Shown: positions 1,962 through 5,155 of the stretch, piece by piece | Layout: every line of letters begins with the position of its first letter | Position numbering within the stretch: the stretch's first letter is position 1 | Source: a virus | Lineage: Duplodnaviria > Heunggongvirae > Uroviricota > Caudoviricetes | Direction: 5' to 3' (one strand) | IMG/VR virus record: IMGVR_UViG_2778261499_000005 | Length of the DNA stretch: 5,155 nt | The notes under the pieces: generated by a model | What the model was told of the DNA's origin: nothing | The model's database searches: none | Seen by the model: the letters and a program-made list of their open reading frames with translations, nothing else | Made by a program: the position numbers and the translations under genes

Positions 1962-1968
1962 TTTTATA

Positions 1969-1997
1969 TTGGCGAGGTGACGTGAGTTAAGTAGAAT
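1969..1997 (+). promoter_or_regulatory. Candidate hok mRNA promoter: TTGGCG (1969-1974), 17-bp spacer, TAGAAT (1992-1997)
   Basis: Good -10 (TAGAAT) with a TTGnnn -35 at 17-bp spacing. The predicted start near 2004 coincides with the 5' element that is complementary to the region after hok. Confidence 0.4.
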
Positions 1998-2003
1998 TGC
2001 TGC

Positions 2004-2051
2004 GGGTGCTTGAGGCTATCTGCCTCAGGCATGAACACCAAAGGCAGATAG
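2004..2051 (+). promoter_or_regulatory. hok mRNA 5' leader refolding elements (tac/ucb/dcb-like)
   Basis: 2009-2015 (cttgagg) pairs with 2023-2029 (cctcagg) as a 7-bp stem with a 7-nt loop. 2016-2024 (ctatctgcc) is also the exact reverse complement of 2043-2051 (ggcagatag). 2004-2015 is complementary to 2380-2392. These are mutually exclusive pairings, as in the hok mRNA switch. Confidence 0.45.
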
Positions 2052-2059
2052 AGAAAAGC

Positions 2060-2124
2060 CCCAGATAACATTACGCGTCCGGCAAGACGCTTAACATTAA
2101 TCTGAGGCCAATTTCATGCTTTGC
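2060..2124 (-). ncRNA. sok: Candidate Sok-like antisense RNA, antitoxin of the hok locus (extent approximate)
   Basis: In hok/sok loci the antisense RNA covers the mok translation-initiation region. A minus-strand promoter-like pair (TTGCCT at plus 2154-2159, 17-bp spacer, TAACCT at plus 2131-2136) would start transcription near 2124, running across the mok SD (2103-2107) and ATG (2116). No clean minus-strand terminator was found, so the 3' end is a guess. Confidence 0.35.
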
Positions 2125-2328
2125 ACATGTAGGTTAGCCTCTTACGCGCCGGAAGGCAAGGAGAAGCAGGCTATGAAGCAGCAAAAGGCGATGTTAGTCG
2201 CACTGATTGTCATCTGTTTAACCGTCATAGTGACGGCACTGGTAACGAGGAAAGACCTCTGCGAGGTGCGAATCCGAACCGGTCAGACGGAGGTCGCTGT
2301 CTTCACAGCTTACGAACCTGAGGAGTAA
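2116..2328 (+). CDS. mok: mok-like frame (70 codons), in-frame N-terminal extension of hok that couples hok translation
   Basis: ATG 2116 preceded by tGAGG (2103-2107) at 8 nt; it shares frame and stop with hok, as I recall for chromosomal mok/hok pairs. The 70-codon length matches known mok frames. Confidence 0.55.
   Translation: MLCTCRLASYAPEGKEKQAMKQQKAMLVALIVICLTVIVTALVTRKDLCEVRIRTGQTEVAVFTAYEPEE
2173..2328 (+). CDS. hok: Hok/Gef-family type I toxin, 51 aa (HokD/RelF-like)
   Basis: Translation MKQQKAMLVALIVICLTVIVTALVTRKDLCEVRIRTGQTEVAVFTAYEPEE matches the Hok family and is near-identical to E. coli HokD/RelF as I remember it. AAGGAG (2158-2163) lies 9 nt upstream of ATG; stop TAA at 2326-2328. 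Confidence 0.93.
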   Translation: MKQQKAMLVALIVICLTVIVTALVTRKDLCEVRIRTGQTEVAVFTAYEPEE

Positions 2329-2337
2329 GAGTGACTA

Positions 2338-2392
2338 GGCGAGGGAGAAATCCCTCGCCGCCTCTGATGTGTCAGGCATCCTCAACGCACCC
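2338..2392 (+). promoter_or_regulatory. hok mRNA 3' structures: perfect 9-bp hairpin with GAAA loop (2338-2359) and fbi-like element (2380-2392)
   Basis: ggcgaggga-gaaa-tccctcgcc is a perfect hairpin with no following U-tract. cctcaacgcaccc (2380-2392) pairs with gggtgcttgagg (2004-2015) over 12 bp with one bulged C. Confidence 0.45.
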
Positions 2393-4678: not shown

Positions 4679-5029
4679 GGGCTGGTTTATTGTATGCCAA
4701 ATGATTATTAAAAAGGTTGTGTTAATAACAAAATCCGAAATAATATGCCTGCATATTTTTATCTTGCTTATATTCTGCATATTGTGCATAGCAGGCTCAT
4801 CCCTGCAATCAAAACTGTATGATGAGTATTTTTTGTTTTCCTTTTTTCCAGTCATCTGATGATGACCTGCTTCTTTTTAATCCGGATCGACATCAGTTTT
4901 TTAAGATAATTCCTGCGAGTTATATGCATAAATACCACAAACTCCGCATTTTATGTGGTTGGGAGTTGCCGGGCGCGCAGTGAGTTTGCTAAGAAAACTC
5001 CTGCATGGTGAATCCCCCTGTGCGGTGGG

Positions 5030-5068
5030 GTGATACCATTAACCTTTTCTGTCGCCGACAGGTATCAC
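5030..5068. repeat. Perfect 8-bp inverted repeat, gtgatacc (5030-5037) / ggtatcac (5061-5068), with a 23-nt spacer; candidate operator or RNA structure upstream of the gene starting at 5102
   Basis: Exact reverse complements read from the sequence; located 34 nt upstream of the SD-led ATG at 5102. Confidence 0.45.
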
Positions 5069-5101
5069 GAACATTTTGTTCACCGGGAGGCACCCGGCAC
5101 C

Positions 5102-5155
5102 ATGCACTTCAATAGATTCTCTCCACATTATGGATATTCTTTCAGAATATCCCAC
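5102..5155 (+). CDS. Possible 5' end of a gene running off the window (MHFNRFSPHYGYSFRISH...)
   Basis: GGGAGG (5085-5090) lies 11 nt upstream of ATG 5102; the frame stays open to the window edge. Only 18 codons are visible, so this is weak. Confidence 0.25.
   Translation, partial: MHFNRFSPHYGYSFRISH

Follow-up and report, generated by a model that had tools for sequence, protein, structure and literature searches.

A minus-strand Sok antitoxin RNA gene in a predicted hok/mok/sok module of an Escherichia coli lambdoid prophage

[quoted passage not shown] In R1, Sok represses synthesis of the Hok toxin via the mok reading frame, and the duplex of Sok with the hok mRNA is cleaved by RNase III (reviewed in PMC4147584; see also PMC9841398). 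R1 Sok has a half-life of about 30 s (PMC1635323). A second reference system is hokW-sokW of the Sakai prophage Sp5, shown by Takada et al. (2021; PMC8621323) to function as a type I system. In that study, sokW RNA was detected by northern blot with probe YO-592, and “pro-less” primers (YO-421/422) were used to change the sokW hexamer TAACCT to GAGCCG. The resulting mutant was toxic, its antitoxin activity was abolished, and sokW supplied in trans rescued it partially (PMC8621323). sokW depends in part on RNase III and Hfq; the trigger of the system is prophage induction, upon which Hok speeds lysis and phage release (PMC8621323).

The stretch of DNA analysed here (“the window”, 5,155 bp) contains a locus of this kind. 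Judging from sequence comparisons, positions 2004-2430 very probably represent an intact hok/mok/sok type I toxin-antitoxin module of an E. coli lambdoid prophage, with a minus-strand Sok RNA of about 71 nt that starts at G2124 (Table 1). Many E. coli chromosomes are 100% identical to the window over 1990-2430, and PGAP names the 51-aa ORF in them hokD; strains CP53 and HS30-1 are examples that have the exact allele. The RefSeq annotation of an identical genome lists hokD only, with no RNA or ncRNA feature at the locus; annotation support for sok comes from phage records only (933W and VT2-Sakai), and the PLSDB tables hold no RNA genes. The hok ORF, which adjoins sok on the opposite strand, matches the Hok/Gef toxin family in Pfam (PF01848, HOK_GEF) with 82.4 bits against a cut-off of 22, and its best identity to homologues is 98%. 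The same Pfam match occupies the C-terminal part of the 70-aa mok-like ORF. A sigma-70-like site (1969-1997) would place the first nucleotide of the hok mRNA at about 2004, which is also where position 1 of RF01794 falls, an Rfam family with 5'-3' (tac/fbi) closure to which the hok leader is homologous. For the 427-nt RNA from 2004 to 2430, the minimum free energy fold joins the 5' and 3' ends (dG -164.3, z -6.1), and the modelled pairing of 2004-2015 with 2380-2392 corresponds to the tac/fbi closure that is typical of hok mRNAs. Two minus-strand ORFs in the area (2142..2228, 28 aa; 1964..2071, 35 aa) are taken as probably non-coding, as they are short and overlap conserved RNA elements.

Table 1. 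Features of the hok/mok/sok locus in window coordinates.
Feature	Position	Strand	Basis
Candidate hok promoter, TTGGCG-17-TAGAAT	1969..1997	+	Promoter scan; mRNA start ~2004
hok mRNA 5' leader (tac element, Sok target, mok start)	2004..2178	+	RF01794 match
U-rich terminator tail UUUUCUCU after conserved GGGGC stem end	2050..2057	-	Sequence
Predicted Sok antitoxin RNA, ~71 nt	2054..2124	-	Gap-free mapping of the 933W/VT2-Sakai SokW annotation
Predicted Sok stem-loop (intrinsic-terminator hairpin) with GC-rich apical extension GCGUCUUGCCGGACGC	2057..2109	-	Folds, covariation
Single-stranded Sok 5' tail, presumed target-recognition segment	2110..2124	-	Unpaired in folds
mok-like leader ORF, 70 aa, in frame with hok	2116..2328	+	ORF list; counterpart of annotated mokW
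Sok promoter -10, TAACCT	2131..2136	-	Same as sokW hexamer; aligns with R1 TATCCT
Sok promoter -35, TTGCCT	2154..2159	-	Sequence; aligns with R1 TTGCGC; same in 933W
hok toxin gene, 51 aa, PGAP name HokD	2173..2328	+	ORF list; PF01848; 90% identity to HokW
fbi-like 3' element CCUCAACGCACCC	2380..2392	+	Pairs with mRNA 5' end GGGUGCUUGAGG (2004-2015)

Downstream of hok, Pfam identifies DUF1367, YbcO and a Q-like antiterminator (DUF1133); this neighbourhood corresponds to the nin/Q region of lambdoid prophages. Further along, the gammaproteobacterial small RNA STnc100 (Rfam RF02076) matches 4973-5155 (+) with 81.5 bits against a gathering score of 47. This match runs off the window end. Its location past the gene for the Q-like antiterminator makes it a probable part of the prophage's late-promoter leader region. 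Just upstream of the hok module, a 432-aa ORF (328-1626, +) has phrog_15354, of function not known, as its only match (E 3e-263) and no match in Pfam or PADLOC; it is a conserved phage protein in a moron-like position.

For comparison, we collected 76 Hok loci from one-genome-per-species contigs and aligned their upstream regions with those of 933W, the Rac-type copy, the R1-type copy and three plasmid loci. Among the 73 distinct sequences, 63 keep the anchor CAAGG(AG), the complement of which gives the TTG of the -35 element. The ten that were dropped for want of CAAGG are K-12-type or unrelated loci (L012, L035, L037, L073, L080, L082), L011, and L055, L083 and L084. In K-12-type hokD loci (five of those just named, without L080, and also L017), unrelated sequence lies directly upstream of the hok Shine-Dalgarno sequence, and mok, the Sok target and sok are missing. 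L011 is of the hokD/W type; its sok -35 is destroyed (GGCACAGG) and its hairpin carries deletions, so that it looks, from its sequence, like a decaying sok. In five loci from Buttiauxella, Enterobacter, Lelliottia and Leclercia (L044, L058, L059, L071, L081), a sequence starting GTACTGACCCCAAAAAGTTGGACAG breaks the Sok hairpin at about 470-510 in each, upstream of hok. These copies have lost the Sok terminator, and their hok is no longer linked to its promoter and leader. For L059, this sequence proved to be the terminal inverted repeat of an element of the IS3 family, next to which lies the C-terminus of an rve-type transposase; in the other four the inserted sequence starts in the same way. 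Finally, eight Hok loci near-identical to E. coli or plasmid copies (L018, L028, L033, L045-L047, L069, L079), mostly on short contigs, come from assemblies labelled Veillonella, Acinetobacter, Xanthomonas, Ferruginibacter, Streptomyces, Oscillibacter, Dysgonomonas and Vagococcus. Contamination or binning errors are the most likely explanation, rather than true hosts.

Could the module in the window have lost its function as well? We consider it unlikely that sok is intact and transcribed within a decaying, non-killing chromosomal copy, with Sok lacking a toxin or acting only as a regulator in trans. For some chromosomal hok/sok loci, post-segregational killing is reported to be absent (bioRxiv 10.1101/2025.08.07.668861), the K-12-type hokD loci L012, L035, L037, L073 and L082 are without the whole sok/mok region, and other copies have an IS inside sok; the window, however, retains the hok promoter, tac, the mok ATG and Shine-Dalgarno sequence, the Hok ORF and fbi, all intact. 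Its hok 3' terminator stem is poorer than that of the Rac-type copy, so the toxin side might be impaired, but many genomes carry the allele with 100% identity, and its close homologue hokW-sokW is functional. As to a role in trans, the variable 5' tail of Sok (see below) speaks against useful cross-regulation. A module that is partly decayed is possible, and the identification of sok is unaffected by this.

The terminator stem of the hok mRNA (2400-2430, +) reads CCTGA TTCG GCGAG in the window and CCCGC TTCG GCGGG TTTTTT in the Rac-type copy (L004), and by this comparison it looks degraded in the window. A simple terminator scan listed no plus-strand terminator downstream of hok. From this region onward, the 933W copy is wholly divergent.

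The evidence supports the view that the minus strand carries the Sok antitoxin RNA gene of a prophage hok/sok system, as an earlier sequence-only reading had proposed. The 933W and VT2-Sakai records annotate a “SokW antisense RNA” at L002 665..735 (minus). The window aligns with 933W without indels here, and the offset of 1389 places SokW at 2054..2124 (minus) of the window. A start near 2124, as had been proposed, agrees with both this annotation and the position of G2124 as the seventh base after the -10 hexamer. A transcript from there covers the mok ATG (2116-2118) and the GAGG Shine-Dalgarno sequence (2104-2107), both inside the Sok-complementary stretch, just as that reading had it, and its statement that this is where Sok RNAs lie holds as well, since promoter, start and target coincide with those of annotated and experimentally studied Sok genes. 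The probe that detected sokW is homologous to 2093-2122 of the window. Going by the sequence, Sok would extend from about 2124 to 2054-2050 (71-75 nt), with a 3' end in the U tract that is uncertain by a few nucleotides. The extent had been called uncertain; the terminator described below gives it this approximate range. Applied to R1, the rule used here (start at the seventh nucleotide after the -10 hexamer, end after GGGGCU...) returns the Sok of 64 nt that Faridani et al. employed in 2006 (PMC1635323). For this exact allele, we infer transcription, the exact ends and the mechanism of repression.

The two promoter hexamers are read directly in the sequence where they had been placed before (Table 1), 17 bp apart, with TCCGGCGCGTAAGAGGC as the spacer on the minus strand. 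TTGCCT matches the consensus at 4/6 positions and TAACCT at 3/6, and there is no extended -10, which bears out the earlier description of the -10 as weak. Our consensus promoter scan of the window did not list this promoter, which we treat as a limit of the scan (3/6 at the -10) and not as a sign of absence. As a bare motif, the hexamer pair is not above chance: pairs as good or better with a spacer of 17 occur 25 times in the 5,155-bp window, about once per 412 nt of strand, and TTGnnn-17-TAnnnT is observed 5 times, with 5.1 expected from shuffles. Because pairs of equal quality are so common in the window, the case for Sok rests on context and homology. The hexamers match the R1 Sok promoter column for column in the alignment (TTGCCT-17-TAACCT versus TTGCGC-17-TATCCT), and the antisense promoter sits where the validated R1 Sok and sokW promoters lie. 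The conserved GCAAGGAG contains the CAA to which the TTG of the -35 element is complementary, which puts the Sok -35 directly against the hok Shine-Dalgarno sequence.

The frequency of such pairs and the missing scan entry would also fit a chance promoter-like match without an antisense RNA, in which case the region would be conserved only for the structure of the hok leader and for the coding of mok. In favour of such a match, the promoter bases also form part of the structured hok leader and border on the hok Shine-Dalgarno sequence, so that their conservation is not attributable to the promoter by itself. We nevertheless regard it as very improbable. The hexamer that was mutated in sokW (TAACCT) is identical to the -10 of the window, the locus is 92% identical, and in sokW this hexamer is needed for antitoxin activity and the RNA has been detected. 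The family-wide alignment and the structure of the RNA speak against a chance match as well. Across many Enterobacterales, the spacer is 17 in 59/63 Sok promoters. The -10 hexamers have the family consensus TAnnCT (A2 in 62/63, C5 and T6 in 63/63), and the base 7 nt past the -10, taken as +1, is G in all of the 63 sequences except the mis-anchored L063. TTGCCT is the most frequent form of the -35 (31/63 homologues). The invariance of its TTG is by construction, as this is the alignment anchor, which does not apply to the -10, the spacing or the +1. Moreover, AGGnTAGCCTCTTAC is conserved although it is read as QDSLLP in the mok frame of R1 and as RLASY in that of the window, which indicates a constraint on DNA or RNA and not on the Mok peptide.

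The earlier reading had found no clean intrinsic terminator on the minus strand. This has to be corrected, since a hairpin (2109..2057) followed by UUUUCUCU is present. A simple terminator scan had left it unlisted too, probably because of single-nucleotide bulges and a stem above the pair count limit of the scan. The minus-strand transcript from 2124 to 2044 folds with a dG of -32.1 kcal/mol (z -5.1), and the 51-nt hairpin core is more stable on the minus strand (-26.9 kcal/mol) than on the plus strand (-17.2 kcal/mol). The minus strand is likewise the more stable one in 61/63 loci (means -27.9 versus -19.7 kcal/mol); these homologues are phylogenetically related, so that the Wilcoxon p-value and the shuffle controls overstate independence and p is only indicative. 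We further aligned 50 distinct predicted Sok RNAs, leaving out the five IS-disrupted loci and L063. The alignment gives a consensus two-helix hairpin in which 96.8% of the cells are paired, as compared to 36-55% with the partner slid. Two pairs are compensatory, GC<->AU (38/11) and AU<->GC (40/9), one U.G pair is retained in 49/50 sequences, and GGGGCUUU(U/C)... is conserved at the 3' end. On the minus-strand RNA, the hairpin contains 110 G.U cells and no A.C cells, the equivalent of G.U on the plus strand, a decisive sign that it is selected as a minus-strand RNA structure. This is beyond what selection on the plus-strand RNA alone would produce. Together with the conserved G 7 nt past the -10 and the conserved minus-strand GGGGCUUU tail, it is difficult to reconcile with a chance match, and we return to a Sok RNA with a single-stranded 5' tail and one stem-loop that doubles as terminator, with a structure conserved on the antisense strand. 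According to the Rfam alignment, hairpins of the hokD/W subfamily have a 16-nt GC-rich apical extension relative to R1, which accounts for a Sok of about 71 nt instead of 64.

The match to Rfam RF01794 (“sok”) requires some care. The window matches the full model on the plus strand at 2004-2178, with 116.1 bits against a gathering score of 59. The consensus of the model is 157 nt long; it starts at the hok mRNA 5' end (GGGUGCUUGAGG) and stops at the hok AUG. As controls, we located the matches at the R1-type locus (L005 200-376) and in 933W (L002 615-789), both of which are hok-sense (+). R1 Sok itself, as defined by in-vitro transcription primers (PMC1635323), corresponds to L005 325..262 (minus). 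The same plus-strand match on R1 and 933W indicates that RF01794 was built in the orientation of the hok leader, and in this orientation a match shows homology of the locus but nothing about the strand of Sok. A lack of matches to Rfam Sok models had been proposed as a refuting test; the model does match, yet on the plus strand, and it is therefore silent on the antisense strand. Taken literally, the full-model match would mean a Sok RNA on the plus strand (2004-2178). This has practically no chance of being correct, as it is ruled out by the R1 and 933W controls, with Sok of R1 on and sokW annotated on the minus strand, and as the model is 157 nt long versus 64-71 nt for Sok. A literature search on the orientation of the CssrC/RF01794 model returned nothing relevant. 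Automated annotation that relies on RF01794 would yield an antitoxin that is too long and lies on the wrong strand. In contrast, a simple positional rule recovers the minus-strand Sok across Enterobacterales: the TTG complementary to CAAGGAG, 17 bp, TAnnCT, a start at the seventh nucleotide, and an end after GGGGCUUU.

The 5' tail of Sok, which is complementary to the mok start codon and the first codons, stands out by its variability. Among 12 hokD/W-type copies that are otherwise very similar, no 16-nt stretch of the locus varies more than 2109-2124: pi is 0.40 in the tail, 0.12 on average over the locus, 0.03 in the hairpin and 0.05 in the hok coding sequence (positions compared among the window, L002, L004 and L010-L023; 12 sequences, kinship ignored). 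Only CAT, the complement of the mok ATG, is retained. The number of places matching the locus has a median of 2 per E. coli genome and reaches 10; in all, roughly 11,000 such places were counted in E. coli genomes. Perhaps, and we offer this tentatively on the strength of the sequence pattern, diversifying selection keeps the hok/sok copies of co-resident prophages insulated from one another's antitoxins. If this were true, each prophage would have a private addiction or lysis-timing switch, and the allele of the window would represent a specificity type distinct from sokW. The variability is the one mildly new observation on the locus, and it is compatible with such a diversification of specificity.

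Together, the data suggest a model for the control of hok in the window. A sigma-70 promoter (TTGCCT-17-TAACCT, minus) would start the Sok RNA of about 71 nt at G2124, and transcription would stop at the intrinsic terminator formed by the hairpin (2109..2057) and UUUUCUCU. The product would begin with 15 single-stranded nucleotides that are complementary to the mok start region and continue into one long stem-loop. If it acts like R1 Sok and SokW, it would pair with the 3'-processed hok mRNA over the mok Shine-Dalgarno sequence and AUG, so that translation of mok and the coupled translation of hok would be blocked, and the duplex would be cut by RNase III. Repression of Hok via mok is what we infer for this allele by analogy, given the perfect complementarity in cis to the mok Shine-Dalgarno sequence and AUG. 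Sok would be short-lived and made constitutively. When its synthesis stops, upon loss of the element or, as for sokW, upon prophage induction, the stable hok mRNA would be translated, and Hok would then damage the inner membrane. Given the prophage setting, an induction-triggered role of Hok in lysis may hold here, too.

How does the locus compare with the known systems? The sok of the window is the orthologue of the RNA gene that was annotated in 933W (AF125520) and has since been studied experimentally, and in this sense it is already known; our analysis adds little biology beyond placing a correctly oriented sok where RefSeq has only hokD. Relative to the window, the hokW-sokW locus (933W, AF125520; VT2-Sakai/Sp5, AP000422) has 92% nucleotide identity. 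It shares TTGCCT, TAACCT, the 17-bp length of the spacer, the start position, the extended hairpin and the GGGGCUUUUCUCU tail, and it also has mok in frame with hok and lies in a lambdoid prophage. The hairpins differ by a single change (A/U at 2066), whereas the 5' tails, GCAAAGCAUGAAAUUG in the window and GUUCAGCAUGGAUUGA in sokW, differ at about half of their positions. Differences are also found at the C-terminus of Hok (…FTAYEPEE in the window, …FVDYESEK in HokW), and in the flanking genes and the hok mRNA 3' end of 933W.

R1 Sok agrees with the Sok of the window in its promoter, which overlaps the hok Shine-Dalgarno region, in the G start 7 nt after the -10, in the single-stranded 5' tail over the mok start, and in the one terminator hairpin ending in GGGGCU. 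In contrast, R1 Sok is 64 nt long and its hairpin is without the 16-nt GC-rich apical extension, R1 Hok is only 41% identical to Hok of the window, and the R1 mok is out of frame with hok, whereas it is in frame in the window. R1 is a plasmid, maintained through post-segregational killing, while the window belongs to a prophage. As for RF01794 (“sok antitoxin (CssrC)”), the 116-bit match spans a model of the hok-sense leader, and the true Sok corresponds to the reverse complement of model positions ~50-120. In E. coli K-12, finally, hokD (relF) of the Qin prophage encodes a near-identical toxin protein and bears the same PGAP name as the CDS in the window; yet K-12-type hokD (L012, L037) is without mok, Sok target and sok, whereas the window has the complete regulatory region.
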